Assembly (NCBI GenBank): GCA_040414485.1
Contig: JBEDUK010000010.1
Span: forward strand, 30,147 to 94,146
Length of the DNA stretch: 64,000 nt
Reading direction: 5' to 3'
Origin: Actinomycetota bacterium
GTDB taxonomy: Bacteria > Actinomycetota > UBA4738
This document shows, piece after piece, positions 36,466-53,379 of this stretch. Numbering within the stretch: position 1 is the stretch's first letter; each line of letters starts with the position of its first letter. The notes under the pieces were generated by a model. The model had not been told where the DNA came from, made no database searches, and saw nothing but the letters and a program-made list of their open reading frames with translations. Position numbers and translations under genes: made by a program.

Positions 36466-37497
36466 ATGAGAGGGCAAGGGAGCGCGATGGACGGCGTCTG
36501 GTTCCTGGTGGCGGCCGCGGTGAGCCTGGCCACGAGCTGGGTGCTGGTCACACGACTCGAACGCATCGGCGAGGCGGCCGGCCTCGCCGAAGGCCTCCTC
36601 GGGCTCCTCGCGGCGCTGGCGGCGGACGTCCCCGAGATCACCTCGGCCTTCACCGCGCTCGCTCACCACGAGCACGCCGTGGGCGCCGGCGTGGTCATCG
36701 GATCGAACGTCTTCAACCTCGCCGCCCTCATCGGCCTCGGGGCGGTGGTCGCCGGGCTGGTCCGGCTGCATCGGCGCGTGGTCGTGCTCGGTGGGCTCTT
36801 CGCCATGCCGATCGCGATCGTGTGCCTCCTGGCGGTGGTCGGGGTCCTCGGAGCCGTCCCGGCGTTCATCCTCTCGGCCGTCATGCTCGCGGTGTACGCG
36901 ATGGTCCTGGCCGAGGGTCGAGGACGGCCGGGGCGCCTGGGGCGGCTCGCCGTGCCCGGTTGGCTGGACGGCTCGATCCGTACGGCGGTGGCGGAGGAGG
37001 AGCAGGAGCTGCTCGAAGCGATCCATCCCAGGCGTGGGACGGTCGTGGACGGAGTGGTCGCGGCGGTCGCCCTGCTGGTCGTGCTGGCGGCGAGCGTCGC
37101 CATGGAGCGGTCCGCGTCGGCGTTCGGCGCGGCGCACGGATGGTCCGAGATCGTGATCGGCGGCCTCGTCCTCGCGGCCGCCACGAGCCTGCCGAACGCG
37201 GTGGCGGGCGTCTACCTGGCGTCGAAGGGGCGCGGCGCGGCGGCGCTCAGCACGACCTTGAACAGCAACAGCATCAACGTGACGATCGGGCTCCTCCTGC
37301 CCGCCATGTTCCTCGGGCTGGGTGCCACGTCGACCGCCGCGGCGCTCACGACGGCCTGGTACGTGGGCTTGACGATCCTGGTGCTCGCGGCCGCCTACGT
37401 GCGGCGCGGGATCGGGCGTCCGATCGGCCTGGTGATCGTCGGCACCTACGCGGCCTTCGTCGCGGTGCTGCTCGGCGCCGGCCCCTCAGTGAGGTGA
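36466..37497 (+). CDS. CaCA-family sodium/calcium exchanger membrane protein
   Basis: Two alpha-repeat regions (GSNVFNLAALIG ... SLPNAVAGVYLASKG) and about 10 TM helices. True start possibly at 36487. Confidence 0.75.
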   Translation: MRGQGSAMDGVWFLVAAAVSLATSWVLVTRLERIGEAAGLAEGLLGLLAALAADVPEITSAFTALAHHEHAVGAGVVIGSNVFNLAALIGLGAVVAGLVRLHRRVVVLGGLFAMPIAIVCLLAVVGVLGAVPAFILSAVMLAVYAMVLAEGRGRPGRLGRLAVPGWLDGSIRTAVAEEEQELLEAIHPRRGTVVDGVVAAVALLVVLAASVAMERSASAFGAAHGWSEIVIGGLVLAAATSLPNAVAGVYLASKGRGAAALSTTLNSNSINVTIGLLLPAMFLGLGATSTAAALTTAWYVGLTILVLAAAYVRRGIGRPIGLVIVGTYAAFVAVLLGAGPSVR

Positions 37498-37944
37498 TTC
37501 GCCGGACGCGACGGCTTTGTCGGCGTCAGCGGTCAGCGCATCCTGCAGGACGTCCCACGCGAGCACCGCGCACTTGATCCGAACCGGGTACTTGACCACG
37601 CCCTTCAGCGCGGCCAGGTCACCCATGGATTCCTCGTCCGGTTCGGCGGCGCCCTCCATGAACGAGCGGAACTCCGACGCCAGGCCGAGCGCCCGGTCCA
37701 CGGGCTGGCCGGCCACCGCTTCGGTCATCATGGACGCGCTCGCCTGACTGATCGAACATCCGGAACCCTCGAACGCGACCCCTTCCAGCACGCCGTCCCG
37801 CACCTGCGCGTGGACCGTGATCTCGTCCCCGCACAGCGGGTTGTTCTTCGAACAGCTGAACTCGGCCCCCGGCAGGTCTCGCTTGTTCCGGGGGTTCTTG
37901 TAGTGGTCGAGGATGACCTCCTTGTACAGCTCCTCAAGCGCCAA
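37486..37944 (-). CDS. sufU: SUF system Fe-S scaffold protein SufU (NifU/IscU-like)
   Basis: NPLCGDEITVH ... GSGCSISQASASMM is the SufU signature. Confidence 0.85.
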   Translation of the reverse strand: MALEELYKEVILDHYKNPRNKRDLPGAEFSCSKNNPLCGDEITVHAQVRDGVLEGVAFEGSGCSISQASASMMTEAVAGQPVDRALGLASEFRSFMEGAAEPDEESMGDLAALKGVVKYPVRIKCAVLAWDVLQDALTADADKAVASGESPH

Positions 37945-39190
37945 AGAACGCCTCCGCCTTCATGAGCGACGCCACCAATGCATCCACCTCGTCGTGGGAG
38001 TTATACACGTAGAACGACGCACGGGCGGTCGCCGGAACCCCCAAGAGGCGCATCAGCGGCTGCGCGCAGTGGTGCCCGGCGCGGATGCAGACGCCGTCGG
38101 TGTCCAGGACCTGCGCCAGGTCGTGCGGATGGATGTCGCGGAACCAGAACGACACCGCGCCGCCGCGCTTCTCCACGTCGTGCGGGCCGAAAACGACCGC
38201 GCCGATCTCCTCCAGGCGCCGGGTCGCGTACGCGGTGATCTCCTTTTCGTGCTGCCGGACGTTCTCCATCCCCAGGTCCGTCAGGTAGCGCACCGCGGTC
38301 GCCAGGCCGACCTCCTCGGCGATGTTCATCGTTCCGGCTTCGAACTTCCAGGGGATCTCCTTGAACGTCGACTCCTCGAGCTCGACCCGCATGATCATCT
38401 CGCCGCCGCCCAGGAACGGGTCCATCTCCTCCAGGCGCTCGCGCTTGCCGTAGAGCCCACCGGAGGCGGTCGGTCCGAGCATCTTGTGGCCGCTGATCGT
38501 GAGGAAGTCGACGTCCAGCGCCGTGACGTCGACCGGCACGTGCGGCACCATCTGCGCGCCGTCGACCAGGATGGCCGCGCCCGCGGCGTGGGCGGCGTCG
38601 GCCAGCGTGCGGATCGGCGGCAGCGTGCCCAATACGTTCGACATGCCCGTGACGCACACCAAGCGGGTCCGTTCGTTGATCAGACCGTCCTCCAAATCCG
38701 TGAGGTCGATCGACCCGTCCTCGGCAAGGGGGATGAACCGGAGCTTCGCTCCGGTGGCCTGCGCCGCGAACTGCCACGGCACCAGGTTCGAATGGTGCTC
38801 GAGGACCGACAGCAGGATCTCGTCGCCCTCGCGGAGGATCTTCCGCGCGAAGCCGTACGAGACCAGGTTCGTCGACTCGGTCGTGCCGCGGGTGAAGATC
38901 ACCGTCGCGGGGTCCGGCGCGCCGATGAACCGCGCGAGCGTCGCCCGGGCGTCCTCGTACATGGCCGTGGCCTCTTCGGCCAGTGTGTACACGCCGCGGT
39001 GGATGTTCGCGTTGTGCCGCTCGTAGAAGTCGTTCACCGCGTCGAGCACCTGGCGCGGCTTCTGACTCGTGGCGGATGAGTCCAGGTACACGAGCGGCAC
39101 GGTCCCATCCGGCCCGACGCGCCGTTCCAGGATCGGGAAGTCCTTCCGGATCCGTTCGATGTCCAGGCTTCGGCTCACCGTCACGCTCAC
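37934..39190 (-). CDS. sufS: cysteine desulfurase SufS
   Basis: PLP-binding SGHKMLGPTASGGLYG and the active-site RAGHHCAQPL. Confidence 0.9.
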   Translation of the reverse strand: MSVTVSRSLDIERIRKDFPILERRVGPDGTVPLVYLDSSATSQKPRQVLDAVNDFYERHNANIHRGVYTLAEEATAMYEDARATLARFIGAPDPATVIFTRGTTESTNLVSYGFARKILREGDEILLSVLEHHSNLVPWQFAAQATGAKLRFIPLAEDGSIDLTDLEDGLINERTRLVCVTGMSNVLGTLPPIRTLADAAHAAGAAILVDGAQMVPHVPVDVTALDVDFLTISGHKMLGPTASGGLYGKRERLEEMDPFLGGGEMIMRVELEESTFKEIPWKFEAGTMNIAEEVGLATAVRYLTDLGMENVRQHEKEITAYATRRLEEIGAVVFGPHDVEKRGGAVSFWFRDIHPHDLAQVLDTDGVCIRAGHHCAQPLMRLLGVPATARASFYVYNSHDEVDALVASLMKAEAFFGA

Positions 39191-39202: not shown

Positions 39203-40009
39203 CTACTGCTGCGGCTCCGCCTCCACGCCCAGTTCGGCCCGGAGACCCTCGTAGCCCTTCTGCTCCAGCTCGTGTGCCAGTTCCGGCCCGCCCGAGAGCA
39301 CGATCCGGCCGCTCATCATCACGTGGATGTGGTCCGGGGTGATGTAGTTCAGGATCCGCTGGTAGTGCGTGATGATCAGCACGCCCAGATCGGGCCCGAT
39401 CAGCCGGTCCACGCCCTGCGCCACGGCCTTGAGCGAGTCGATGTCCAGCCCGCTGTCGGTCTCGTCCAGGATCGCGATCGACGGCTCGAGCACCGCCAGT
39501 TGCAGGACCTCGTTCTTCTTCTTCTCCCCGCCGGAGAACCCCTGGTTGACGTAGCGGCGGACCATCTCGTCGTCCACGCCGAGCAGGTCCATCTTCTCCT
39601 TCATGAGCTTGCGGAACGCGAGCGCGCTGGTGGTCTCGCCCTTCACGGCGTTGTACGCCGTCCGGAGGAAGTTCACCACCGACACGCCCGGGATCTCGGT
39701 CGGGTACTGGAAGGCGAGGAACAGCCCCAGTTGCGCGCGCTTGTCCGGCGCCAGCGAGGTGATGTCCTCGCCACGGAACCGGATCTCGCCGGCCGTGACC
39801 TTGTAGGTGGGGCGGCCCATGAGGACGTTCGCCAGGGTGGACTTCCCCGACCCGTTCGGCCCCATCAGCGCGTGAACCTGCCCCTGTGTGATCGTCAGGT
39901 CGATCCCCTTCAGGATCTCCTTGCCCTCCACTTCCGCGTGGAGGCCGCGGATCTCCAGGGTCGCCGCACCCTCCTTCGTCTCGCGCATCGTCGCTTCGGT
40001 CGTCGCCAT
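39203..40009 (-). CDS. sufC: Fe-S cluster assembly ATPase SufC
   Basis: Walker A GPNGSGKST, ABC signature, and typical SufC length. Confidence 0.9.
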   Translation of the reverse strand: MATTEATMRETKEGAATLEIRGLHAEVEGKEILKGIDLTITQGQVHALMGPNGSGKSTLANVLMGRPTYKVTAGEIRFRGEDITSLAPDKRAQLGLFLAFQYPTEIPGVSVVNFLRTAYNAVKGETTSALAFRKLMKEKMDLLGVDDEMVRRYVNQGFSGGEKKKNEVLQLAVLEPSIAILDETDSGLDIDSLKAVAQGVDRLIGPDLGVLIITHYQRILNYITPDHIHVMMSGRIVLSGGPELAHELEQKGYEGLRAELGVEAEPQQ

Positions 40010-40018
40010 GTCTGTCGT

Positions 40019-40345
40019 CTACTCCTTGCCCATCTCGATCAGGATCGCGTCGCCTTCGACCTTCACCGGGAAGACCGGCACCGGCTTGGTGGCCGGCAGC
40101 GCCCTCGGCCGGCCCGTCTCCAGGTCGAACATCGAGCCGTGCTTCGGGCACTCGATCGTGCCGTCCTCTGCGTCCACCTCGCCGTCCGAGAGGTGGTAGT
40201 GCTCGTGGGAGCAGATGTCGCCAACCGCCCGGAACACGCCGTCGCCCAGGTTGACCAGCGCGACCTCGCTGCCGTCGACCAGCACGTGACGGGCCTCGCC
40301 CTCGGGGACGTCGCCCACCCGCGCCACCTCAACCAGGTCACCCAT
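40019..40345 (-). CDS. Rieske [2Fe-2S] ferredoxin (suf-associated)
   Basis: CSHEHYHL ... CPKHGSMFD is the Rieske CxH...CxxH motif. It lies between sufD and sufC. Confidence 0.8.
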   Translation of the reverse strand: MGDLVEVARVGDVPEGEARHVLVDGSEVALVNLGDGVFRAVGDICSHEHYHLSDGEVDAEDGTIECPKHGSMFDLETGRPRALPATKPVPVFPVKVEGDAILIEMGKE

Positions 40346-41693
40346 CGGCGGCCACCAGTTCCTCGGCGGACATGCCCGGGGTCGCGATCTCCGCGGCGAT
40401 GGCCTCCTCCACGCTCTGCTTGACCTCGGGGATCGTCACGCGGTCGAGCACCTCTTGGAAGAAGCCGAACACCACCAGGCGTTCGGCCTCCTCGTACGGG
40501 ATGCCACGGCTCTGGAGGTAGAAGATCGTCTCCTCCTCCACCGGCCCGACGCTGGCCGCGTGCCCGCAGCGCACCGGGTCGTTCGACAGGATCTCGAGGT
40601 TCGGGATCGAATCCGCCTTTGCCTGGTCGGAGAGCAGGATGTTCCGGTTCGTCTGGTACGCGTCGCACAGGTGCGCGCCGTGGCGCAGCACCACGGTCCC
40701 GCTGTAGATGGCCCGGGACGACCCCTTCAGGGCGCCCTTGTACAGCAGGTCCGACCGTGTCCGGGAGCCCACGTGGTCCTGGATCGAACGGAAGTCGAAG
40801 TGCTGCTTCCCGTGCCCGACGTACACGCCGAGCATCTCGGAGGCCCCGCCGTCGCCGAGGAGGAGGCTCTCCGACTCCATCCGCGACAGCGATCCGCCGA
40901 ACGCGACCGCCAGCGAGCTCAGCTCCGCGTCGCGGTCGATCTCCGCACGCTGGACCTGGAGGTGGATGACCCCGCTCCCCCAGTCCTGCAGCGTGACGTA
41001 GCGAAGCCGCGCGTTCGGCCCGGCGTAGATCTCGACGACCGCGTCGGACAGCACGCCCTCAAGGTCCGGCGACACGAAGCGGTCGATGAACGTCAATTCG
41101 GCGCCCTCGTCGAGCACGATGACGGTGTGGGGGAAGACGGCGAGGCCGTCGCGGTCCACATAGGTCACGGTCTGCAGCGGCAGGTCGACCTTCACGCCCG
41201 CGGGCACATGGACGAACGTCCCACCGCTCCGGAAGGCGGCATGCAGTGCGGCGAACCGCGAGCGGTCGGCCGGCACCGTCCCGTGGAGCCTGTCGGTCAG
41301 CAGGTCGGGCCGCGTCGCGGCCACGTGGTCGATGCTCGCGAAGGTCACGCCGTCCTTGCGCGCCTTCGGGTCCAAGTGCGCGGTGACGACGGTCGAGTTG
41401 TGCTGGATGGCCAGGCCGGAGCGCTCGCCGAGCGAGCCGGCGGCCTCCAGCAGCGTCGGGTCGACGCCGTCGAGGTTGTCGGCGGCCGGCTCGGGCAGAT
41501 AGGGGTCGAACGCCTCGAGGTCCAGTTCCCGCAGGTCGGTGTAGCGCCACTCCTCGGTCTCCGGCGAGGGCATCGGCGTGGTCTCGAAGATCTCGAACGC
41601 CTGCGCCCGGAGCCTGGCCAGGCCGTTGCCGCTCTGCTCGGCCAGGGCCGTCAGCGTGGTTCGATCGAATCCGTGCCTGGTGGTGTCGGCCAA
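40338..41693 (-). CDS. sufD: Fe-S cluster assembly protein SufD
   Basis: SufB/D beta-helix core (LLYKGALKGSSRAIYSGTV...) without the SufB Cys motif. Overlaps the Rieske gene start. Confidence 0.85.
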   Translation of the reverse strand: MADTTRHGFDRTTLTALAEQSGNGLARLRAQAFEIFETTPMPSPETEEWRYTDLRELDLEAFDPYLPEPAADNLDGVDPTLLEAAGSLGERSGLAIQHNSTVVTAHLDPKARKDGVTFASIDHVAATRPDLLTDRLHGTVPADRSRFAALHAAFRSGGTFVHVPAGVKVDLPLQTVTYVDRDGLAVFPHTVIVLDEGAELTFIDRFVSPDLEGVLSDAVVEIYAGPNARLRYVTLQDWGSGVIHLQVQRAEIDRDAELSSLAVAFGGSLSRMESESLLLGDGGASEMLGVYVGHGKQHFDFRSIQDHVGSRTRSDLLYKGALKGSSRAIYSGTVVLRHGAHLCDAYQTNRNILLSDQAKADSIPNLEILSNDPVRCGHAASVGPVEEETIFYLQSRGIPYEEAERLVVFGFFQEVLDRVTIPEVKQSVEEAIAAEIATPGMSAEELVAADG

Positions 41694-41929
41694 TGGATGC
41701 CTCGCTTGCCGTCGTCTCGGGCCGGCGCTCGAGCCGGCGCGATCGGTGGTCCTGCCTGCGGTGCGCCCCTCGCCCTCGCCCTCGCGCGGTTCCGCATCGA
41801 AATCCTATCAGCGAAGTAGGAATTAGCTCCCGCTCAGCGTCCACGGCTCCTCCGTGGAGGCGTCCGCTTGAACCGAACGCTCGCGAAGCGTCACACGGGT
41901 GGGGTCAAAGGGGTTATCAATTCGTGCTC

Positions 41930-42430
41930 ATGCAGCCCATCTCGACGTCGGCCGGCCCTCGAGCGGCGTTCGACGAGTTCTTCCACGACCACTACCTACC
42001 CCTCGCGAAGGCCATGTACCTGGTGACCGGGGATCGGGCAGACGGCGAGGACGTCGCCCAGGAGGCGATGGCGCGCGTCTACGAGAGATGGGACCGCGTC
42101 GCACGCATGGAATCGCCGAGCGGCTACCTGTACCGAACCGCCATCAACCTGCAGAGGAAGCGAGTCCGCTCGTCCAGGCGCCAGCGTCCGCTCCCCCTGC
42201 CCACCGGAGTCCCGGATCCGGCGGAGACGGTCGATCGACGGGAGCGGATCCGTGCGGCCATCGGGGCGCTCACGGCAGAGCAGCGTGAGGCGCTCATCCT
42301 GGTCGAGTTCCTCGGACTCGATTCGACGCAGGCGGCCGCCGCCCTCGGCACGTCGTCGGAGTCGGTTCGGGCTCGCCTGCATCGGGCGCGCACGACGTTG
42401 CGCGACCAGTTCGGAGGCAGCGATGTCTGA
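41930..42430 (+). CDS. ECF (sigma-70 family) RNA polymerase sigma factor
   Basis: Region 2 (FHDHYLPLAKAMYLVTGDRADGEDVAQEAMARVYERW ... LYRTAINLQRKR) and region 4 (LTAEQREALILVEFLGLDSTQAAAALG...). Confidence 0.75.
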   Translation: MQPISTSAGPRAAFDEFFHDHYLPLAKAMYLVTGDRADGEDVAQEAMARVYERWDRVARMESPSGYLYRTAINLQRKRVRSSRRQRPLPLPTGVPDPAETVDRRERIRAAIGALTAEQREALILVEFLGLDSTQAAAALGTSSESVRARLHRARTTLRDQFGGSDV

Positions 42431-43535
42431 TCTGCGCAGCCTCCTCGACGAGGCGTCGGCCGACCTCACGCCGGCGGGCGACGAATACGCCGCGACCATC
42501 GGGCTGGCGGCTCGCCGGACCCGGAGGGCACGGCGGCAGCGCCTCGTCGCCGCCGCGGTGGCGATCGTCATCGCGGCAGCCGGCATCTCGCTCGCCGTGG
42601 GCACATTCGGTCCGCGAGCAGGCCGTCCGGCGGGGCAACCGCCCTACGGCAACGGTCCCATCGGGTTCGTCGGCTTCACGTCGAACGCTCCGTTCGGCAT
42701 TACCGGCGACCTTTACACCGTGAACTCGGACGGCTCCGGACTGACGCGCCTGACCCGGTCCGGTGACGTGACGGTCGACGTCCACTTCTCGCCGGATGGC
42801 CGGAAGGTCCTGTCCGCGCGGAGCCCCGGAGAGGGCGATTGGACGATCGCCGTGATGAACGCCGACGGCTCGGACCGCCGGCAACTCACGGGTGGAGAGG
42901 CAGGATCAGCCTCGAGCGCAACGGACGAGTTCCCCTCCTGGATCGCCGGGGGCCGGATCGCGTTCGTCCGCAACACAGGCGGCCGGGCGGCGCAGGGCAT
43001 CTGGATCATGAACGCCGACGGATCGAGGGCGCGGCTCGTGACGCCCGGTTGGGTTCCATTCGAAGCGGCGTTCTCGCCGGACGGCTCGCGCGTCGCCTGG
43101 ATGGGCAACCGGCACACAGGCGCAGGCGAAGAGGACATCTTCGTGGCCGACCTCGACGGATCCCACCGCGCGCGGCTGACCCACGATCCGGGAACCGCCA
43201 TGATGCCGTCCTGGTCACCGGACGGGGCGAGGCTCGCCTTCGTCAACAGCGGAACGATCCAGGTCATCGATTCGGACGGTTCCGGCAGGCGAACGATCTA
43301 TCGATGCGACCGGCCGTGCGCCGGCGGCCAGTGGCCCACCTGGTCGCCGGATGGCCGGGAGATCGCGTTCACCGTCTCGTCGATGCAGCCCCCGTTCTCC
43401 CGCACGAAGTGGACCGATCTCTTCGTCGTTCGAACCGACGGCTCCGACCTGCATCGCGTGATCCGCCTGCCGTTCATCGCCTGCTGCCCCACCTGGCAGC
43501 CGATCGGGCCTGCCGGCGGCGACTCCGGACGCTAG
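42423..43535 (+). CDS. membrane-anchored TolB-like beta-propeller protein (putative anti-sigma / sensor partner of the ECF sigma factor)
   Basis: Start ATG overlaps the sigma-factor stop. One TM helix (LVAAAVAIVIAAAGISLAVG), then repeated PD40-like blades (FSPDGRKV, AFSPDGSRVAW, PSWSPDGARLAF, PTWSPDGREIAF). Confidence 0.7.
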   Translation: MSDLRSLLDEASADLTPAGDEYAATIGLAARRTRRARRQRLVAAAVAIVIAAAGISLAVGTFGPRAGRPAGQPPYGNGPIGFVGFTSNAPFGITGDLYTVNSDGSGLTRLTRSGDVTVDVHFSPDGRKVLSARSPGEGDWTIAVMNADGSDRRQLTGGEAGSASSATDEFPSWIAGGRIAFVRNTGGRAAQGIWIMNADGSRARLVTPGWVPFEAAFSPDGSRVAWMGNRHTGAGEEDIFVADLDGSHRARLTHDPGTAMMPSWSPDGARLAFVNSGTIQVIDSDGSGRRTIYRCDRPCAGGQWPTWSPDGREIAFTVSSMQPPFSRTKWTDLFVVRTDGSDLHRVIRLPFIACCPTWQPIGPAGGDSGR

Positions 43536-43536
43536 A

Positions 43537-44631
43537 TCAGGTGTTGCAGTACCCGGAGTCCGAGTGCCAGGGCGACCAGCCGTAGTGCGCGACCGTGTAG
43601 GCCGCGACCGCCACGTTCGCCTCCGCGTTGAACACGTCCGCCCCCTTCCAGCCGGCGTTCGACGAGAACCACGGCCAGAGGTTCGGCATGAACTGGTACA
43701 CGCCGGACGCTCCGCTGTACCTGTTCACGGCGGTCGGGATGTACCGGGATTCGCGCCAGCCGACGCAGAGCGCCGTCTCGAGGTCAGCCCGCCCGAGCGG
43801 CCCGAAGTAGTAGTGGATCAGGGCGACGACCTTCTTCGGCCCGCCGGGCGGCGGGGGCGGCGGACGGTAGTTCCCGTGCCCCGAATGGCGCAGCGCCTGT
43901 TCGGCGAGCTCACGCTGCCGCTTGTCGCGCAGCGACTTCAGCGTCGCCTGGAGCTTCGTCCGGTCAGCGTCGAGCTGTGCGACAACCGTCCGCTGCTTCT
44001 GGAACGCGACCGCGAGCGACGACGCGTCGGCCTCCATGTGGCCCTCTGCCGAACGACGTCTCGCCGAGAGCGCTTCCAGACCGGCCTCGACCCTCACCAG
44101 CTGCGACCGCGACTGGTCCACCGCGGCCGTGTCGGCGGAGATCTGTCCGGTTCCGGCGTTCAGGTCCGCGACCCGCTCGGCCATGTCGCCGAAAGAGGTC
44201 GACTCGAGCACGATCGCGAGATTGCCCGCCGGGCCCGTCATGTAGGCCTCGCGCGCCATCGCGTCGATCGCCGCCTGATGCGTGGCGACGGTCTGGGCGA
44301 GCTGACGCATACCCAACTGGGCGTTGACGATCTTCCCCTGGGTCGCTTCGATGCTGCGCCGGCCGGCGTCCACCTGTTCGAGCAGGGTCACCAGCTGCGC
44401 CTGCAACGCGTCTCGCTGCTTCGCGGCGGCGTTCACGCGCGCAACCAGCGCGCTGAAGTCCGACTGAGCCTTCCGCAGGTCCGAAGCGGTGTCCGCGCCG
44501 GCCGGCGACAGCGAGACGGTCGACACCGCAGCCAGAGCGAGCATGAACGAGGCGATCGACCGCGCGGAGCGAAGGCCCCGCCGGCCGTTCCGTGCCAGTC
44601 CGGTCGCGCGCGCGTTCTGCAGAATCGTCAA
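43537..44631 (-). CDS. secreted coiled-coil protein with C-terminal lytic-transglycosylase (SLT-like) domain
   Basis: Signal peptide, a long coiled-coil region, a PPPPPP linker, and a C-terminal CVGWRESRYIPTAVNRYSGASGVYQFMP region paralogous to the 8868..9272 gene. Confidence 0.7.
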   Translation of the reverse strand: MTILQNARATGLARNGRRGLRSARSIASFMLALAAVSTVSLSPAGADTASDLRKAQSDFSALVARVNAAAKQRDALQAQLVTLLEQVDAGRRSIEATQGKIVNAQLGMRQLAQTVATHQAAIDAMAREAYMTGPAGNLAIVLESTSFGDMAERVADLNAGTGQISADTAAVDQSRSQLVRVEAGLEALSARRRSAEGHMEADASSLAVAFQKQRTVVAQLDADRTKLQATLKSLRDKRQRELAEQALRHSGHGNYRPPPPPPGGPKKVVALIHYYFGPLGRADLETALCVGWRESRYIPTAVNRYSGASGVYQFMPNLWPWFSSNAGWKGADVFNAEANVAVAAYTVAHYGWSPWHSDSGYCNT

Positions 44632-44777
44632 CCTGCCTTACTTTTCAAATGGGCTCCGCGCGGGACGGCGCAGAAGCCTCGGAGAAGGGTTCGACTTCCG
44701 GCCCGCACGGCTTGACGCGGACGACCCCGAACCTTCGACCTAGGTCGGACGGACGACCCTGTAGGCTCGGATTCGAG

Positions 44778-46124
44778 ATGGAGGAGCCCGTGGACCGATC
44801 CGTGAAGGAACGCGTGCGTTCGCTCATGCCCGGCGTGCGCGCCGACCTCGAATCGCTGGTGCGCATCCCGTCGGTCGGCTTCGACGGATTCGATCCGACG
44901 CACGTTCGCGACTCCGCTGAGTTGACGCGCGACCTCCTGGAAGGCTGCGGCGCGACGGCCCGCCTGCTGGAGGCGGATGGTGCGCATCCGGCGGTCCTGG
45001 CTCATGTCGACGGGCCGGATGGGGCGCCGACCGTGCTTCTGTACGCCCATCACGACGTCCAACCGCCCGGCCCCGCCGAACTCTGGAGCGCCGGACCCTT
45101 CGAGCCCGTGGAGCGCGCGGGTCGCCTCTACGGGCGCGGCGTCTCCGACGACAAGGCGGGGATCGCGATGCACCTCGCAGCGCTTCGGGCCTGGGACGGC
45201 AAGCCCCCTGTGGGCGTCACGATCTTCGTCGAGGGCGAGGAGGAGTGCGGGTCATCGAACCTCGGGACGTTCCTGGCCGCGGCGCGGGACGAGCTCCAGG
45301 CGGACGTGGTGGTCCTGGCGGACGGTGGAACGTGGCGGACGGGCACGCCGGAACTGACGGGGTCGCTGCGCGGCGTGGTGGCGTGCTTCGTGGAGGTCCG
45401 GGTGCTGGATCACGCCGTGCACAGCGGCGGGTTCGGCGGCGTGTTCCCGGACGCCCTCATGGTGCTGTCCCGGATGCTGTCCACGCTGCACGACGACGAC
45501 GGCGACGTGGCCGTGGACGGTTTGGTCCGAGAGTCGGGGCCGGCCACGGACCTGACTGAAGCGGAGCTCCGGTCGTACACGGGCGCGCGACCGGGCGTGT
45601 CGCTGATCGGCAGCGGGTCGCTCGAGGAGCGGCTGTGGACGAAGCCGGCGATCTCGATCCTCGGTATCGACGCGCCGGCGACGTTCGAGGCTGCGAACCG
45701 GCTGGTCGCGTCGGCGCGGGCGAAGGTCAGCATGCGGATTCCGCCGGGGCAGGATCCGGCGGCGGCCATGTCGGCGTTGCAAGAGCACCTGCGGGCTCAT
45801 GTGCCGTGGGGCGCCGAGGTTTCGTTCAGCGGCGAGGACCTGGGCGCGCCGTACGTGCTGGCCTCGGACGGGCCGGCCTACGTCGCGATGCGGCGGGCGA
45901 TGCTGGAAGCGTTCGGCATTGATGCTGTGGCCGCTGGGAGCGGCGGTTCGATCCCGTTCGTGGCGGAGTTCGCGTCGTTGTTGCCGAACGCGGAGTTGAT
46001 GATCACCGGCGCGGGCGACCCGCAGTGCAACGCGCATGCGGAGGACGAGAGCCTGGACCTCGGCGACCTGGAGAAGGCGTGCCTGGCTGAGGCGCTGTTC
46101 TTGCGGTACCTCGCCGAAGGCTAG
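44778..46124 (+). CDS. M20-family dipeptidase (ArgE/DapE/CPG2-like)
   Basis: LLYAHHDVQPPG, RLYGRGVSDDKAG, and a GEEE metal-binding region. Paralogue of the 55568..56908 gene. Confidence 0.8.
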   Translation: MEEPVDRSVKERVRSLMPGVRADLESLVRIPSVGFDGFDPTHVRDSAELTRDLLEGCGATARLLEADGAHPAVLAHVDGPDGAPTVLLYAHHDVQPPGPAELWSAGPFEPVERAGRLYGRGVSDDKAGIAMHLAALRAWDGKPPVGVTIFVEGEEECGSSNLGTFLAAARDELQADVVVLADGGTWRTGTPELTGSLRGVVACFVEVRVLDHAVHSGGFGGVFPDALMVLSRMLSTLHDDDGDVAVDGLVRESGPATDLTEAELRSYTGARPGVSLIGSGSLEERLWTKPAISILGIDAPATFEAANRLVASARAKVSMRIPPGQDPAAAMSALQEHLRAHVPWGAEVSFSGEDLGAPYVLASDGPAYVAMRRAMLEAFGIDAVAAGSGGSIPFVAEFASLLPNAELMITGAGDPQCNAHAEDESLDLGDLEKACLAEALFLRYLAEG

Positions 46125-46570
46125 GGCGGCGGCGTTCCCCCGCCCGGCGGGGCGATCACGATCGTGCCCTTCATCCCCAGGTCGCGGTGATACGCGCAGT
46201 ACATGAAGTAGCGGCCGTTGCCGCCCAGCCGCGCTCCGATGTTGCGGATGACCAGCGACTTCCCCGGCGCGACGTTCGCCGAGTAACCGATCCCCGGGAT
46301 CGTCACGTTGTGGTCGTTCATGCCGTAGTTCGTGACGACGAGCGTCTCGTTCAGGGCGAGGTGTGGTGTGGGGTGGGCGTCGTGGAAGTGGTAGTCGACG
46401 GCGCTGACGACCCAGATGGGCGCGGCCGTCGCGGTTTCATCGTGACCAGAACTGGCGACCGTCGCGATCGCGATCGTGAGCGCGATGACGGCTCCGGTCC
46501 ATCGAATCACTGAGCCGCGTCTGCTGGGGTGGTTTGCCACGGCAGGCATTGTCTCGGATGGAACGAACAT
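46121..46570 (-). CDS. small membrane-anchored cupredoxin-like (type-1 copper) protein
   Basis: N-terminal hydrophobic anchor plus ligand pattern H...C-x-x-H-x-x-x-x-M (YHFHDAHP ... YCAYHRDLGM). Start ambiguous (46549 or 46570). Confidence 0.45.
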   Translation of the reverse strand: MFVPSETMPAVANHPSRRGSVIRWTGAVIALTIAIATVASSGHDETATAAPIWVVSAVDYHFHDAHPTPHLALNETLVVTNYGMNDHNVTIPGIGYSANVAPGKSLVIRNIGARLGGNGRYFMYCAYHRDLGMKGTIVIAPPGGGTPPP

Positions 46571-46628
46571 CCGTGTCTGACACCGGCTCGGCTGACGGTG
46601 GGTCAATCTCCCGTGCGACACTCGCATC

Positions 46629-47090
46629 GTGTTGTCCTTGAAGCTCGAACCATCCGAGTACGAAGCGCGAGTCGCTCACTACGTGAGCCGCGTGCTCGCG
46701 CCTGTGCAGCCCGGATCTCGGATTCCCGACTCGGATGACCTGGAAGAGCTCCTTTCTTGGCTCGAAGGGTTCGTCCAAGCCGCGCTGCCCTTGGCTTGCG
46801 GGGCCGCTACCATCCTCGATGGCATCGTTCCCGAGAGCGCGACGAAGCACAAATCGTCGACCGCGAAGATCCTCGGTCGGTGCTGGGTGCTTGGATCGCG
46901 CGGAGACGTGCAGCAGCCCATCTACTTGTCGATCCGCGCCCACGCGGACCTGGATCGGATCAAGCGACTCGAGTGCAGGTTCGGCGTGTCGGGCAACTCC
47001 AACCCGTCCGACAAGGTTTTGAACTCGCTGCTGCTCCCGGACGCGATCCATCGCATCGCGTGGGCCTGCGAGTTCACGGTCGACGGGTAA
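46629..47090 (+). CDS. hypothetical protein (low-GC orphan ORF)
   Basis: 153-aa ORF with visibly lower GC than its flanks, convergent with sufB. No recognisable domain. Confidence 0.35.
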   Translation: MLSLKLEPSEYEARVAHYVSRVLAPVQPGSRIPDSDDLEELLSWLEGFVQAALPLACGAATILDGIVPESATKHKSSTAKILGRCWVLGSRGDVQQPIYLSIRAHADLDRIKRLECRFGVSGNSNPSDKVLNSLLLPDAIHRIAWACEFTVDG

Positions 47091-47093
47091 CGC

Positions 47094-48506
47094 CTAGCCG
47101 ATCGCGCCTTCCATCTGGAGCTCGATCAGCCGGTTCAGCTCGACCGCGTACTCCATGGGCAGCTCGCGCGTGATCGGCTCGATGAAGCCGTTCACGACCA
47201 TGGCGGTCGCTTCGGCCTCGGTCAGCCCGCGCGACATCAGATAGAAGAGCTGGTCCTCGCCGACCCGCGAGACCGTGGCCTCGTGGCCCAGCTGCGCGCT
47301 CTGGTCCTCGACCTCCACGTAGGGATAGGTGTCCGAACGCGACTCCTGGTCCAGGATCAGCGCGTCGCAGCGGACGATCGACTTCGCGTGGTGCGCCTCG
47401 GGCTCCACGCGCACGAGCCCGCGGTACCCGGTGCGACCGCCGTCCTTCGACACGGACTTCGACGTGATCACCGACGATGTGTAGGGCGCCACGTGAACGG
47501 CCTTGCCGCCCGCGTCGGTGTGCATCCCCTTGCCGGCGAACGCCACTGAGAGCACCTCGCCACGCGCACCCTTGCCCAGCAGATAGATCGAGGGGTACTT
47601 CATGGTGATCTTCGACCCGATGTTGCCGTCGACCCATTCCATGACCGCGTCCTCGTGGGCGGCGGCGCGCTTGGTCACAAGGTTGTAGACGTTCGTCGAC
47701 CAGTTCTGGATCGTCGTGTACCGCACGCGGGCCCCGCGCTTGACGACGATCTCGACCACCGCCGAGTGCAGCGAGTCGGTCGTGTAGATCGGCGCCGAGC
47801 AGCCCTCCACGTAGTGCACGTATGAACCCTCGTCCGCGATGATCAGCGTCCGCTCGAACTGCCCCATGTTCTGGGCGTTGATCCGGAAGTACGCCTGCAG
47901 CGGGATGTCCACGTGCACGCCCGGTGGCACGTAGATGAACGACCCGCCGCTCCACACCGCGGAGTTCAGGGCGGCGAACTTGTTGTCGTTCGCCGGGATG
48001 ATCGTGCCGAAGTACTCCTTGACGATGTCGGAATGGTCGCGCAGGGCGGTATCCATGTCGCAGAAGAGCACCCCGATGTCGTCGAGCTCCTTCTTGATCT
48101 TGTGGTAGACGACCTCGGACTCGTACTGGGCGGAGACGCCGCCCAGGTACCGCTTCTCCGCTTCGGGGATGCCCAGCTTGTCCCACGTGCCGCGGATGTC
48201 CGCGGGCAGGTCCTCCCACGTCTTGGCCTGCTTCTCGGTGGACCTGATGAAGTAGTAGATGTCGTCGAAGTCGATGTCGGAGAGGTCGGCGCCCCACCAT
48301 GGCATCGGCCGCTGCTGGAAGTGCTTCAGCGCCTTCAACCGGTACTTGCGCATCCAGACCGGCTCACTCTTGAGGTAGGAGATCTCCTCGACGACCGCCT
48401 CGTTCAGCCCCTTCTTGGGCTGGAAGACGTAGTGCTCCGGATCGTGCCAGCCGAACCGGTAGCCCTTGGACAGTTCGTTGAGGTGTTCCTGCTGCGTGAC
48501 GGCCAT
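47094..48506 (-). CDS. sufB: Fe-S cluster assembly protein SufB
   Basis: 470 aa with SufB-specific motifs ([50 protein letters not shown]). Confidence 0.9.
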
Positions 48507-48658
48507 GGCCGGGTCCCTTCGAATCGCTGCAATCAGGGGGGCGTGCTTCGTCCCCGTCAGTCTACCGTTGAAACCCTACCTCCGCGATAGGAATTCCAAC
48601 CCGCCGCGGCCGGTCCCGGCCGGCCGCGTGGTCGGGGACGTCGGCGCGGGTCAGCCGG

Positions 48659-49162
48659 TCAGAAGAACCCGAGGGCGGCCTTCGCCTCCTCGGACATCAT
48701 CTCCGGCGTCCACGCCGGGCGGAACACCATCTCCGCGTCGAAGCGTTGGAGCCCCGGCACGTCGGCCAGGAACCGCTGCATCTCCATCTCGATCATCGGC
48801 CCGATCGGGCACCCCATGGTGGTGAGCGTGTAGGTGATGTACACCCGATCGTCGTAGACGTCGATGCCGTACACCAGGCCGAGGTCGACGATGTTGATCC
48901 CGAGCTCGGGGTCGACCACGTTCTTCAGCGCCTCCGCGACCCGGTCGCGGATCTCGCGCGCCTCCTCGTCCTCGCGCGGGGGGCCCTCCGGCCGTTCCGG
49001 CGGCGCCGGCGGCTCCGCGGGCTCGACGTAGCCTCCGGGGACCGGGCCTCCATAGGGCCCCGCGCCGGGCTCGTCCGGCCACGCCGCGCCTGTTGCACTC
49101 CACGCGGGTGGGACCGGTTCCTCCCACCACGCCTTCGCGTCTTCTCTCATCGGTGCCTCCAC
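48659..49162 (-). CDS. sufT: DUF59 / SufT (MIP18-family) Fe-S assembly protein with ~75-aa Pro-rich N-terminal extension
   Basis: C-terminal core (IRDRVAEALKNVVDPELGINIVDLGLVYGIDV...TMGCP) matches DUF59. The N-terminal part is low-complexity and P/E-rich. Confidence 0.7.
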   Translation of the reverse strand: MEAPMREDAKAWWEEPVPPAWSATGAAWPDEPGAGPYGGPVPGGYVEPAEPPAPPERPEGPPREDEEAREIRDRVAEALKNVVDPELGINIVDLGLVYGIDVYDDRVYITYTLTTMGCPIGPMIEMEMQRFLADVPGLQRFDAEMVFRPAWTPEMMSEEAKAALGFF

Positions 49163-49212
49163 CAGGTCTCGGGGACCTCGGGCTATCCTACCCAGGACCC
49201 GGACTCAGGCAG

Positions 49213-49845
49213 GTGCTCGTGAGGGTGCTCATCGTCGACGACCACCCGGTGACTCGCGATGGCCTCCGGTCGGCGCTCTCGCGGGCCCACGACCTGGAGG
49301 TTGTCGGCGAGGCCGGCTCCGGTGAGGATGCCGTGACGGCCGCCCAGGCGCTTCGTCCCGATCTGGTCTTCATGGACGTCCGCATGCCGGGCATCGGAGG
49401 CATCGAGGCGACGCGGGCCATCCGCAACGTCCTGCCCGAGACCAAGGTGATCCTCTTCACCGTGGACGAATCGCGCGCGGCCATCGCCGAGGCGATCCAG
49501 GCGGGCGTCTCGGGCTACCTTCTGAAGGACGTCTCCAGCGAGGACCTCCACCGCGCGGCCCGCATGGCGCTCGAGGGCAAGGCCGTGATCCACCCCGCGC
49601 TCATGAAGGCGTTCCTGGACGAGGTTCGATTCCTCCCGAAGGACGGCTCATCTCCCCTGTCTCCGCGCGAGGTCCAGATCCTGCAGCACATCGCGAGCGG
49701 GTCGTCGACGAAGCAGGTCGCCAGGGATCTCGGGATCTCGGCGCACACCGTCAAGACGCACCTCGAACGGATCTTCGACAAGCTCGGGGCGAACGACCGC
49801 GCGCAGGCGGTCGCCATCGCCCTGCGGATGGGCGTGGTGCAGTAG
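49213..49845 (+). CDS. NarL/LuxR-family two-component response regulator
   Basis: Receiver domain (VLIVDDHPVTRDGLRSAL ... DLVFMDVRMPG) and LuxR HTH (LSPREVQILQHIASGSSTKQVARDLGISAHTVKTHL). GTG start; exact codon uncertain. No adjacent histidine kinase. Confidence 0.8.
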   Translation: MLVRVLIVDDHPVTRDGLRSALSRAHDLEVVGEAGSGEDAVTAAQALRPDLVFMDVRMPGIGGIEATRAIRNVLPETKVILFTVDESRAAIAEAIQAGVSGYLLKDVSSEDLHRAARMALEGKAVIHPALMKAFLDEVRFLPKDGSSPLSPREVQILQHIASGSSTKQVARDLGISAHTVKTHLERIFDKLGANDRAQAVAIALRMGVVQ

Positions 49846-49883: not shown

Positions 49884-51182
49884 TCAGCCCGCTGCCTCGG
49901 AGCGACGATGATCCCTGGTCACGGCCTCGAGCGCGTCCGCATCGGTCGCAACCACCGTGGCGTTCGCGGCGAGGTCCGTCCAGAGCGCCGTGGCCTCGCC
50001 ACCCGTGAAATCGCGACCTTCGATCGGCGAGCCCTGGACAAGGTACGCGAGGTGGCCGGCGCGGGCGGCGTCCAGGGCGAGGCGGAGGTTCGCCACGTTG
50101 CCGGCACCGAACGGTGGGTCGCACACCACGATCGCCCAGGCATCGGCCATCAGGCCCGCTGCCTCGCGCGCCGCGGCGTCGTCGATCGGAGCGAACGCCG
50201 GGACGCTCACCCGCCGCAGATCGAGACGCGCGGCGACGTCCTCATCGGTGTCGGTCCCGTGAAGCACCCCCACGGTCACCTCGAAGCCGCGTTCGGCCAG
50301 GCCTCGCATCAGCGCCGCGCCGGATCCCGCGCCTCCCACCACGTGCACCCGGGCGCGCGAGGTTGCCTCCGCCTCCGACGCAGCGGCGAACGTCACCGTC
50401 GGCCTGCCCGTCCGGGGGGCGCGCGTCACATCGGCGTCCACGCCGTACAGGCGCCGGATCAGGCCGGTTTCGATGACCTCGCCCGGCGAGCCGGACGCCA
50501 AGACGCGGCCGCGGTCCATCGCATGGATGCGATCACAGAAGGCGGAGGCCAGGTTGAGATCGTGGAACACGGTCAGCACCGCGGCTCCGTCGCGGTGGGC
50601 GAGGCGGCGCGCGACCGCCATGGCATCCAGCATGTGGCCGGGATCGAGGTGAGTCGTCGGCTCGTCCAGGATGAGCACGCGCGTGGACTGGGCAAGCGCC
50701 TGGGCCAGCACGACCCGCTGACGCTCGCCCCCGGAAAGCTCGTCCGTCGGCCGGTCCGCCAGGTGCTGGACGTTCGCCGCCGCCATCGCGCTGCGGGCGA
50801 TGGCCCAATCGTCCGGCCCGCCGGAGCTCCATGCCGAAAGGAAGGGCGAGCGACCCATGAGCACCACTTCGAACACCGTGAACGAGAACGCCGGCGTGAA
50901 CTCCTGCGGGACGACCGCCGCAAGCCGGGCCGCCGTCCGGCTGGGCACCGCGTACGGATCCATGCCTCCGACCAGGACCTGGCCGGCCGTGGGGCGCAGC
51001 CCCCGGGAGGCCACACGCACCAGCGTGGTCTTCCCCGAGCCGTTCGGCCCGATGAGGCCTACGATCTCGCCGGGGCGAACCTCGAGCGACACCTCGTGGA
51101 GCACCGCTCGCGCTCCGTACCCGGCGGTGACCGACCGCAGCTCGAGCCCTTCGTCCGTGGCTGCGGCTCGCACGGCGGTCAT
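49884..51182 (-). CDS. btuD: ABC transporter ATP-binding protein (BtuD/FecE-type) with an extra ~170-aa Rossmann-like C-terminal domain
   Basis: Walker A GPNGSGKTT, signature LSGGERQR, Walker B ILDEPT, then a C-terminal domain starting VHVVGGAGSGAALMRGLAERGFEVTVGV.... Its start overlaps the permease stop. Confidence 0.8.
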   Translation of the reverse strand: MTAVRAAATDEGLELRSVTAGYGARAVLHEVSLEVRPGEIVGLIGPNGSGKTTLVRVASRGLRPTAGQVLVGGMDPYAVPSRTAARLAAVVPQEFTPAFSFTVFEVVLMGRSPFLSAWSSGGPDDWAIARSAMAAANVQHLADRPTDELSGGERQRVVLAQALAQSTRVLILDEPTTHLDPGHMLDAMAVARRLAHRDGAAVLTVFHDLNLASAFCDRIHAMDRGRVLASGSPGEVIETGLIRRLYGVDADVTRAPRTGRPTVTFAAASEAEATSRARVHVVGGAGSGAALMRGLAERGFEVTVGVLHGTDTDEDVAARLDLRRVSVPAFAPIDDAAAREAAGLMADAWAIVVCDPPFGAGNVANLRLALDAARAGHLAYLVQGSPIEGRDFTGGEATALWTDLAANATVVATDADALEAVTRDHRRSEAAG

Positions 51183-52207
51183 GCGCGGGCGCCGGCGCGA
51201 CGGCGTTCGCGCCGCAGGAGATAGATGAAGAACGGCCCGCCGAGCAGCGCCGTCACCGCCCCCACGGGGATCTCCTCCGGCGACACGACGGTTCGCGCCA
51301 CCAGGTCGGCCAGGACCATGAAGGTCGCCCCGCCGAGGATCGACGCCGGCAGAAGGCGCCGGTGGTCCGGTCCGACGATCCGGCGCATGATGTGGGGCGT
51401 CATCAGGCCGACGAACCCGATCAGGCCGGCCACCGACACCGCCGCCGCCGCAAGCAGCGATCCCGACGCGAGCAGGAGCCGCTTGAAGCCTTCGATGTCG
51501 AGCCCGAGCTGCCCCGCCCGCTCCTCACCCAGCGCCATCAGGTTCAGGTTCGCCACGGAAAGCGCCACCACGACCACGCCGGCCGCGATGGGAATGCCCG
51601 CCTCGCCGACCTGCTGCCACGACGCCGCCCCGAGCCCGCCCAGGAGCCAGAAGTAGATCGAACGCACCTCTTGGCCCGACATCGCCATGACGAGCGTGAT
51701 CACCGAGGAGATCACCGCGGCCACGGCGATGCCGGCCAGGAGCAGCGTTCCGACCTGCACGGCCGGTCCGATCCGGGCCAGCCGGTAGACGAGCAGGGCC
51801 GTCAGCAACGCGCCCGCGAACGCGGCCGCCGCCGTCGCGGAACCACCCAGCGCGGCGCCCCACCCCGCCAGGATCACCGCGATCGCGCCCAGCGCGGCGC
51901 CCGAGGACACACCGATGATGGCGGGGTCCGCCATCGGGTTGCTGAACAGCGTCTGGAAGACCGCGCCGGCGACCGCCAGCCCGGCGCCCACGATCGCGGC
52001 GAGCAGCACCCTCGGCAGGCGCAATTGCAACAGGATGACCTGGTCGGTCAGGGGCACACCCGCCGGGCGGCCCGTGAGATGGGCCTTCCAGAGCAGGAGC
52101 CGGACCACGTTCCAGGGCGCGATCCACACCGAGCCGAGCCCGACGGCAAGGATCACCACCAGGACGAACACGGCCGCGATCAGGGGCAGCCGGCCCCGTT
52201 TCGTCAC
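51179..52207 (-). CDS. btuC: FecCD-family ABC permease (BtuC-like)
   Basis: 342 aa, about 9-10 TM helices, and the FecCD signature region (LLGGPFFIYLL). GTG start in a GTGA overlap with the btuF stop. Confidence 0.8.
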   Translation of the reverse strand: MTKRGRLPLIAAVFVLVVILAVGLGSVWIAPWNVVRLLLWKAHLTGRPAGVPLTDQVILLQLRLPRVLLAAIVGAGLAVAGAVFQTLFSNPMADPAIIGVSSGAALGAIAVILAGWGAALGGSATAAAAFAGALLTALLVYRLARIGPAVQVGTLLLAGIAVAAVISSVITLVMAMSGQEVRSIYFWLLGGLGAASWQQVGEAGIPIAAGVVVVALSVANLNLMALGEERAGQLGLDIEGFKRLLLASGSLLAAAAVSVAGLIGFVGLMTPHIMRRIVGPDHRRLLPASILGGATFMVLADLVARTVVSPEEIPVGAVTALLGGPFFIYLLRRERRRAGARA

Positions 52208-53232: not shown

Positions 53233-53379
53233 GAGGCCCTCCTCTCATGCGCGAAGAGCGCAGGCCGTGTTCGGCGCGGGGCGATCCCCGCGCCGCGCTC
53301 GTCCTCGAGGCAGGTCTCCTGACTTCCGGATCCCGCGACCGGCGCCGCCCGCCTCCGCGGGGACGTTCGCCGGTCGCTG

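Follow-up and report, generated by a model that had tools for sequence, protein, structure and literature searches.

A shared palindromic candidate operator before both halves of a split suf locus in a SufR-less actinobacterial clade

How might the subunits of one essential complex be kept in proportion when their genes do not share a transcript? SufB, SufC and SufD assemble into a single scaffold complex, which cells with SUF as their sole Fe-S assembly system cannot do without, and the three are for that reason usually taken to be co-transcribed. The question is raised by a 64-kb stretch of DNA from an uncultured member of the Actinomycetota (positions 30,147 to 94,146 of contig JBEDUK010000010.1, assembly GCA_040414485.1; hereafter the window, meaning the whole stretch analysed), in which 5.4 kb and three opposite-strand genes part sufB from sufD, so that the single-operon sufBDCSU layout does not hold. 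A first-pass annotation, made from the sequence alone, had described a suf cluster split by six open reading frames (ORFs) on both strands, and Pfam and NCBIfam identities bear this out, with SufB and SufD scoring over the TIGR01980 and TIGR01981 cutoffs. It was also right that the sufD half needs a promoter of its own, because a transcript from sufB would run antisense through the three opposite-strand genes. Here we argue that the locus probably forms a suf regulon of two units that share an Rrf2-type operator, in a SufR-less actinobacterial clade where the ground between the two units is permissive and fast-changing. The suf genes, the two operator copies and their immediate neighbours are as follows.

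37486-37944, minus strand: sufU, NifU_N scaffold/sulfur-transfer protein (PF01592, 91.6 bits), last gene of the sufD unit
37934-39190, minus strand: sufS, cysteine desulfurase (PF00266, Aminotran_5, 466.9 bits), identical protein already in the database
39203-40009, minus strand: sufC, ABC-type ATPase (PF00005), 73-81% identical to the sufC-position gene of relatives
40019-40345, minus strand: Rieske [2Fe-2S] ferredoxin gene, between sufD and sufC (PF00355, 72.4 bits)
40338-41693, minus strand: sufD, which opens the distal transcription unit (TIGR01981, 242.7 bits; cutoff 222)
41800-41824, minus strand: operator copy 1, AATTCCTACTTCGCTGATAGGATTT in the suf direction, 107 bp upstream of the sufD start
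47094-48506, minus strand: sufB (TIGR01980, 711.9 bits against a cutoff of 346.4)
48571-48595, minus strand: operator copy 2, AATTCCTATCGCGGAGGTAGGGTTT in the suf direction, 65 bp upstream of the sufB ATG
48659-49162, minus strand: DUF59/SufT-like protein gene, upstream of sufB (PF01883, 68.4 bits)
49093-49845 (start probably near 49219), plus strand: LuxR-type response regulator gene, divergent from DUF59 (Response_reg and GerE domains)

The window is about 69% GC, so that ORF lists are crowded, and reading frames were judged by frame-specific GC content at third codon positions (GC3). The SUF system is represented by SufB and SufD, each over its equivalog cutoff, together with SufC, SufS and SufU/NifU_N; sufB is apparently monocistronic here, and the sufD start is a TTG at 41693 with GAGG 8 nt upstream. 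The order sufD-Rieske-sufC-sufS-sufU is preserved in relatives, where the same-position gene is 62-70% identical to sufU, and the Rieske gene is found between sufD and sufC in most of the 80 loci introduced below, a placement common in actinobacterial suf clusters.

A 25-bp palindrome upstream of sufB and of sufD

The two operator copies take the form AATTCCTAY-N7-RTAGGRTTT, the clade consensus being AAATCCGAC-N7-GTCGGATTT. A search with the degenerate 25-mer, allowing three mismatches, returned exactly two matches in 64 kb where 0.01 would be expected, and each of them stands before a suf unit. Copy 1 lies within the divergent intergenic region that sufD shares with the gene for an extracytoplasmic function (ECF) sigma factor; copy 2 is followed by a -10-like TAGACT. 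The DUF59 gene is not preceded by an operator.

Comparative support was sought through a SufB scan, limited to one genome per species, which yielded 80 loci. The window and 12 species representatives (L001-L011 and L080), all of them metagenome-assembled genomes (MAGs) of uncultured Actinomycetota with SufB 83-91% identical, constitute the clade; loci outside it are at most 73% identical in SufB, and the nearest outgroup in the SufB tree is a set of Acidimicrobiia-like loci. The closest relatives, L082 and L083, were retrieved via the 90% SufB cluster. L082 keeps both operators, the sufB copy being identical and the sufD copy, 91 bp upstream of sufD, carrying 1 mismatch; in L083 the sufB copy is near-identical, and TAGACT is kept in both.

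A position weight matrix (PWM) built from the first 11 sites was then used to scan the loci of relatives. Matches were found 30-50 bp before sufB in L001, L006, L007, L008, L010, L011 and L080 (with weaker ones in L003 and L009), 5-160 bp before sufD in L002, L004, L006, L007, L009, L010 and L011, and before a rhodanese gene that precedes sufB in L001, L002, L004, L006 and L008. Over 1.4 Mb of loci, 31 matches scored at least 18, compared with 0-3 in shuffles. In L080 an operator at 20996-21020 (28.8 bits) precedes an A-type Fe-S carrier gene at 21073-21390 (PF01521) by some 50 bp, which suggests that the regulon reaches beyond the suf genes; no homolog of this carrier was found in the window. 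A weak third matrix match in the window (58638-58662; 15.0 bits; GGTTGCGATCCAGGACATAGGGATT) lies within an ORF predicted to encode 623 aa and is probably a chance occurrence.

In L007, sufB and sufD are separated by a spacer of 68 bp, and an operator lies within it, which makes the autonomy of sufD independent of any insertion; L005 and L080, in which the genes are also adjacent, lack this site. The separate control element of sufD accounts for the tolerance of insertions at the junction. The right half-site, TAGGAT, is in several relatives 6-7 nt away from the earliest start codon that sufD could use, a placement that would suit a -10 box and a leaderless mRNA, although this reading of it is inference only. 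A terminator scan of 41500-49300 gave results at chance level.

Which regulator may read the palindrome

SufR is excluded on sequence grounds as the regulator. As the first-pass annotation had noted for the upstream side of either half, no sufR is to be seen: tblastn with the SufR proteins of L027 and L040 (E<=1) found no homolog anywhere in the 64-kb window or the 12 clade loci, whereas in about 45 classical actinomycete loci the same queries found SufR directly before sufB. The palindrome CAAC-N6-GTTG, which is the SufR operator motif (PMC8593673), has 0 matches in the 64 kb.

The company that the 25-bp motif keeps elsewhere points instead to the Rrf2 family. In Chloroflexota suf loci with an embedded Rrf2 gene the motif stands at the operon head in 5 of 5 cases, and in one of them (L026) only 10 bp separate it from the Rrf2 gene that follows. 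At least 120 loci from very diverse organisms were retrieved by scanning metagenomes for AATTCCTAYN7RTAGGRWTT; clade members are not among the matches listed, and the scan bears only on the association between motif and Rrf2 gene. Among these listed matches, 26 of 120 loci hold an Rrf2 homolog, and the motif directly flanks the Rrf2 gene in 21, being 6-127 bp upstream of it in 12 and just after it in about 9 more, several of the latter before a cysteine desulfurase. A dyad of about 25 bp repeated in the upstream regions of several Fe-S units, and associated with Rrf2 genes, is what characterizes an Rrf2/IscR-type regulon.

The IscR Type-1 site, whose geometry the dyad shares, has the Escherichia coli consensus ATASYYGACTRWWWYAGTCRRSTAT (PMC6599224). 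Scored over its 25 positions, the window sites agree with this E. coli consensus at 12, the clade consensus at 14, the L010 site at 16 and the Chloroflexota sites at 19-21, where the 95th percentile of random sequence is 12; for the window and the clade consensus, then, the resemblance is borderline. A likeness to the Bacillus CymR site is possible as well; a literature search for the CymR consensus string returned nothing. On a metagenome contig of 70.7% GC (L166), the exact motif occurs at 422-446, 18 bp ahead of the gene for a sulfite/nitrite reductase (NIR_SIR; 464-2728). The Rrf2 subtype behind the motif could be a regulator of sulfur or cysteine metabolism, CymR-like, and not a strict IscR.

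Taken together, these findings suggest the following mechanism. The genes sufB and sufD-Rieske-sufC-sufS-sufU would form separate transcription units, each behind its own copy of an operator that may overlap or abut the promoter of the unit. One dimeric repressor, encoded outside the window and probably an Rrf2-family (IscR-like) sensor of Fe-S clusters or thiols, would bind both copies and be released from them together as demand for Fe-S clusters rises, such that expression of SufB and SufC2D could remain coupled in the absence of a common mRNA. Binding of the motif by an Rrf2 protein of this organism, and repression as its outcome, are what we infer. The first-pass annotation had remarked that sufBCD stoichiometry would call for two promoters here; the presence of the same operator before both halves, which that annotation did not record, would resolve the puzzle.

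Several observations weigh against this reading. The matrix was trained on 11 sites that it later scored, and the scores are therefore partly circular, real support coming from the positional consistency of the untrained matches. Two relatives (L002 and L004) have no detectable site directly before sufB, and two others (L005 and L080) none before sufD, so the architecture is not uniform across the clade. A simple scan of 41500-49300 found 0 sigma-70 promoters; zero consensus promoters are to be expected in DNA of 69% GC, and the promoters discussed here are thus candidates only. Neither a hidden Markov model (HMM) search of six-frame translations (E<=1) for an Rrf2 gene in the window and close loci, nor tblastn with an approximate E. 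coli IscR query in the window and clade loci, found a regulator, hence the requirement that it be encoded outside them. The connection to IscR also passes through the clade consensus and the Chloroflexota sites. Finally, the palindrome might be bound by the neighbouring LuxR/NarL-type response regulator (about 49219-49845), which would place suf under two-component control and not under an Rrf2 protein. NarL-family regulators bind inverted repeats, this regulator stands next to DUF59, in divergent orientation, in every clade locus with that side present, and a GAF-PAS histidine kinase is inserted there in two close relatives. However, the same motif heads Chloroflexota suf operons in which an Rrf2 gene is present but a regulator of this kind is missing from the vicinity, it adjoins the Rrf2 gene in 21 of the 120 metagenome matches listed, and the intergenic region between the regulator and DUF59 contains no copy of it. 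We consider the LuxR-type neighbour a quite unlikely binding protein, and a weaker alternative to an Rrf2 repressor.

History and contents of the spacer

The window belongs to a metagenome-derived NCBI contig of 118.8 kb, and a split locus in such a contig could in principle be a chimera of two loci, since high-GC repeats can mislead assemblers; misassembly at either junction had been named in the first-pass annotation among the findings that would overturn its reading. We find this scarcely credible. An independent ENA assembly (L082; 80-93% protein identity to the window, and 93% for SufD over 450 aa) holds DUF59-sufB together with cupredoxin-M20-SLT-operator-sufD-Rieske-sufC-sufS on one 17.4-kb contig, with the DUF59-sufB and SLT-...-sufD junction sequences conserved; the JGI contig L083 repeats the sufB-cupredoxin-...-M20-SLT side; and a Logan contig (L081, read set SRR34018536) spans the junction between the PD40 and SLT genes exactly. 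The junction between the ECF gene and the operator (about 41825-41930) is the only one for which independent assembly support is missing. The six ORFs of the spacer are listed below, and the frame-specific GC3 pattern backs the frames of all of them.

41930-42430, plus strand: ECF-type sigma factor, 166 aa (Sigma70_r2, PF04542, and r4_2, PF08281), start ATG 41930
42423-43535, plus strand: single-pass membrane protein with an extracytoplasmic PD40 beta-propeller, 370 aa (PF07676), identical protein in the database
43537-44631, minus strand: secreted coiled-coil protein with a C-terminal SLT-like transglycosylase domain (PF01464, 24.6 bits)
44592-46124 (ORF; likely start near 44763), plus strand: M20 family dipeptidase-like protein (NF005914/PRK07907, 564 bits)
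46121-46627, minus strand: small cupredoxin-like protein anchored by a transmembrane (TM) segment (PF13473, 20.7 bits, below cutoff; C-x2-H-x4-M in the translation)
46629-47090, plus strand: ORFan convergent with sufB, 135 aa in the NCBI call (135-153 aa), coding status uncertain

The start of the M20 gene is placed near 44763 because its relatives are annotated at 453 aa. The ORFan matches no Pfam or NCBIfam family, and a homolog search returned only its own NCBI record.

The first-pass annotation had treated these genes as a 5.4-kb insertion into a canonical operon, to be dated by synteny. The relatives do not support that description. By tblastn synteny the clade shares a backbone of FecCD/ABC transporter, LuxR-type regulator (minus), DUF59 (plus), a variable interval, sufB (plus), a second variable interval, and sufD-Rieske-sufC-sufS-sufU. 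The response regulator is kept as a neighbour throughout (61-70% identical at the same position), and the position of DUF59 is constant in every clade member with that region available. The genes sufB and sufD are adjacent in only 3 of the 12 species representatives (L005, L007 and L080). Their separation elsewhere is 1.3 kb in L002 and L004, 2.1 kb in L006, 3.0 kb in L009, 3.2 kb in L011 and 3.7 kb in L010, while L001 has no sufD within 7 kb of sufB, and in L003 and L008 the contig stops after an unrelated gene behind sufB. Unrelated genes thus follow sufB in 9 of the 12 representatives and in every closer metagenomic relative checked, or 13 of 16 clade loci overall, and what fills the space varies from one relative to the next: a DUF222-HNH endonuclease (5 loci), TetR with ABM, YCII, a methyltransferase, GNAT with a UvrD-type helicase, RDD with a GMC oxidoreductase, an RHH-PIN pair and, in the nearest relatives, Ldh, a polysaccharide deacetylase and a cation efflux protein (CDF), or a Zn-peptidase.

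Loci of the Acidimicrobiia-like outgroup (L024, L062, L069, L015 and L058) resemble the window in that sufB is parted from sufD-Rieske-sufC by 1.5-5.3 kb or more and SufR is lacking, but their spacers hold housekeeping genes (NucS, a primary-type sigma factor, uracil-DNA glycosylase, M23 peptidase, enoyl-CoA hydratase), and at the thresholds applied neither their sufB nor their sufD showed the 25-bp motif upstream. In two of them (L024:10373-15046 and L062:11627-16694) the spacer has a common set of genes, for NucS, a primary-type sigma-70 factor, DUF4015, an M23 peptidase and a member of the uracil-DNA glycosylase family. Such conservation shows that the split in the neighbouring lineage is stable and old. 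By the condition for refutation that the first-pass annotation had itself set, an ancestral order in related genomes, the suf split is old, and its description as one insertion into a canonical operon finds no support.

The interval between DUF59 and sufB is variable as well, being occupied by a two-domain rhodanese in 7 relatives and a GAF-PAS histidine kinase in 2, and empty in the window. The rhodanese (L001:9042-9896, with equivalents in L002, L004, L006, L007, L008 and L011) is absent from this position in the window, L082 and L083; a paralog 30% identical to it lies some 8.5 kb off in the window, at 56962-57852, without an operator. The kinase, of about 850 aa with GAF, PAS and HisKA domains, is found on the opposite strand in JGI contigs of samples 3300041967 and 3300043313 (SufB at least 90% identical), and may be the partner of the conserved LuxR-type response regulator. 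On the far side of that regulator, the FecCD/FecCD/ABC transporter genes (about 49884-53232, minus strand) have directly upstream of them a cobalamin riboswitch (RF00174, 75.9 bits; 53304-53523, minus strand), and this block, kept beside suf across the clade, is probably a B12-type importer.

Comparison with the two closest relatives also dissolves the earlier picture of the spacer as one unit. Written with strands relative to sufB, the window reads sufB - ORFan(-), cupredoxin, M20(-), SLT, PD40(-), ECF(-) - sufD; L082 reads sufB - Ldh, polysaccharide deacetylase, CDF, cupredoxin, M20(-), SLT - sufD; and L083 reads sufB - cupredoxin, Zn-peptidase, M20(-), SLT. Across the three, SLT is 79-81%, M20 84-86% and cupredoxin 80-85% identical, and because of this identity (79-86%) these genes are placed in the gap already in the common ancestor. 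The ECF/PD40 pair and the ORFan occur in the window only, and are absent from L082 and L083. Homology between the window and L082 resumes about 10 bp upstream of the sufD operator, from which it follows that the ECF/PD40 pair sits between the SLT stop codon and the operator and leaves the control region of sufD intact. The window spacer would thus comprise three layers, namely an older core (cupredoxin, M20, SLT), a genome-specific ECF/PD40 pair, and a genome-specific ORFan beside sufB; on the gene orders of these taxa, the pair may have been gained in the window lineage or lost in L082. Among 5.8 billion proteins the PD40 protein finds itself, one fragment at 62% and others at no more than 43% identity, and searches with it and with the ORFan gave no orthologs whose context could reveal a source. 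A homolog of the M20 gene, 64% identical to window 44763-46124, occurs in L001 (2436-3779) in a different variable slot, about 6 kb beyond the other side of sufB. Identity of 64% is typical of orthologs at the distance between the window and L001, and the occupation of different slots points to local shuffling of the same genes between them.

It might still be supposed that a single envelope-stress island of 5.4 kb, recently and horizontally acquired, disrupted an ancestral sufBDCSU operon. Contiguity in all classical actinomycetes of the set (sufR-sufB-sufD-(Rieske)-sufC-sufS-sufU-DUF59, SufR present) and adjacent sufBD in L005, L007 and L080 would agree with this, as would the predicted nature of five of the six products, each either a sigma factor or a protein of the envelope or extracytoplasmic space. 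Yet the block is layered, its core common to L082 and L083 and the remainder not; most clade loci, as enumerated above, carry unrelated genes after sufB, with different contents each time; and the suf genes were not disrupted, in that both units keep their conserved operator. Nor does the gap bear marks of mobility: there is no recombinase-family product (integrase included) among the six, no tRNA in the window, and no meaningful terminal or flanking repeat. The suggested check of base composition gave a divided answer. The ORF at 46629 is indeed lower in GC (63% for its region versus 69% for the window; 0.63/0.46/0.81 by codon position; GC3 0.81-0.82 compared with a window mean of 0.883 and a standard deviation of 0.045), but GC3 of the gap genes lies within 1-1.6 standard deviations of the window mean, a native composition that gives no foreign signal. 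An island of recent origin is improbable, and largely refuted by synteny.

The functional half of that idea, a cell-envelope stress module, is likewise not demonstrated, as only the ECF and PD40 genes are coupled. The PD40 start overlaps the ECF stop by 8 nt, as in a translationally coupled pair, and the sigma factor, for which the nearest NCBIfam match (SigE-family TIGR02983) falls below cutoff and an identical protein is already in the database, consists of sigma2 and sigma4 regions only (166 aa) and is followed by a coupled membrane protein with one TM segment, as seen in the translation. In these respects, namely coupling to a protein that crosses the membrane once and exposes a sensor-like domain outside the cytoplasm, the pair is like known pairs of ECF sigma factor and membrane anti-sigma factor. 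It is unlike them in that the partner has no recognised anti-sigma domain (domain searches gave PD40 and DPPIV_N only, with no zf-HC2 or RskA match) and a cytoplasmic segment of only about 40 residues; the PD40 protein is a possible sensor or anti-sigma partner. The ECF-type pattern TGAAC-N14-17-CGTC has 12 matches in the window, and the single one within the block precedes the sigma gene itself; a pattern this degenerate cannot define a regulon, and its absence before the cupredoxin, M20 and SLT genes is a weak test. The grouping of the gap genes may be coincidental cargo, a view in which we have low confidence either way, and the spacer genes seem functionally unrelated to suf.

A two-unit suf regulon would account for this history. 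Because two transcriptionally autonomous units leave selectively neutral ground between them, the spacer could be filled, turned over and diverged in nearly every species. Turnover could also have been driven actively, if the spacer is an integration hotspot made by a free-standing DUF222-HNH endonuclease which targets the 3' flank of sufB; repeated cleavage and repair, in addition to neutral drift, would then keep the contents changing, and the window would be a site that has lost the nuclease. The genes in question all lie on the minus strand relative to sufB.

L001:12719-14011, minus relative to sufB: DUF222-HNH endonuclease gene
L003:6162-7463, minus relative to sufB: DUF222-HNH endonuclease gene
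L006:11417-12640, minus relative to sufB: DUF222-HNH endonuclease gene
L008:4736-5926, minus relative to sufB: DUF222-HNH endonuclease gene
L009:2621-3862, minus relative to sufB: DUF222-HNH endonuclease gene

Their convergence with sufB, near or adjoining it, in five loci from all three sub-branches of the SufB tree is suggestive, and mutual identities of 49-80%, with the L003 protein not closest to that of its SufB sister L001, hint at mobility. On the other hand, a profile of the five proteins found no remnant in six-frame translations of the window (best E 0.34), neither L082 nor L083 has an HNH gene, no cleavage specificity is known, and the distance to sufB is not fixed, ranging from overlap in L003 through 4 bp in L006 and 159 bp in L008 to one or two intervening genes in L009 and L001. 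We hold a nuclease-made hotspot to be unlikely, although it is compatible with a two-unit regulon and not exclusive of it, and the DUF222-HNH gene may be a selfish element which adds to turnover at the junction. The thought that the ORFan is itself a decayed DUF222-HNH gene was dropped, as a profile search of 41600-47200 found nothing.

Relation to known systems and significance

The actinobacterial sufR-sufBDCSU(-sufT) operon, known from Mycobacterium tuberculosis (Rv1460-1466) and Streptomyces avermitilis, is repressed by [4Fe-4S]-SufR. The window shares with it SufB, SufD, SufC, SufS, SufU, the DUF59 protein and the position of the Rieske gene between sufD and sufC. It differs in lacking both sufR and CAAC-N6-GTTG, in having DUF59 upstream of sufB and not after sufU, in the physical and transcriptional separation of sufB from sufD, and in carrying another palindrome, of 25 bp. 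To the control exerted by IscR in Proteobacteria, the likeness consists in a 25-bp dyad (with half-sites YYGAC-N7-GTCRR in the Type-1 site) placed at or near promoters of Fe-S genes, several promoters answering to one regulator. The differences are that only 12 of 25 positions agree, with the G of GAC replaced by T (CCTAC/CCTAT), that the regulator gene is not linked to suf, and that the host belongs to a Gram-positive lineage which has SUF only.

A broader evolutionary scenario may be sketched, tentatively and with more doubt than conviction: a deep-branching SufR-less clade could have exchanged operon-based for regulon-based coupling of SufB and SufD, through duplication of an Rrf2-type operator before the sufB, sufD, rhodanese and A-type carrier genes, and the junction so freed could have become a lineage-wide hypervariable hotspot, possibly seeded by DUF222-HNH.

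The practical weight of these observations is limited, as the organisms are uncultured, the regulator is a candidate only, and neither split suf clusters nor IscR-type regulons are new in themselves. Their interest lies in the combination. The window locus and some 15 relatives offer a natural case in which co-transcription has been given up and coupling is apparently kept by identical operators, while rapid gene turnover is tolerated between the units, and they supply a candidate operator, together with a candidate class of regulator, for control of suf in Actinomycetota that lack SufR. According to a 2021 review, suf regulation is unknown for most Gram-positive bacteria (PMC8593673). If the evolutionary scenario sketched above is true, coupling through a regulon would provide, in a single group, a concrete and testable solution to the problem of suf control in Gram-positive bacteria without SufR.

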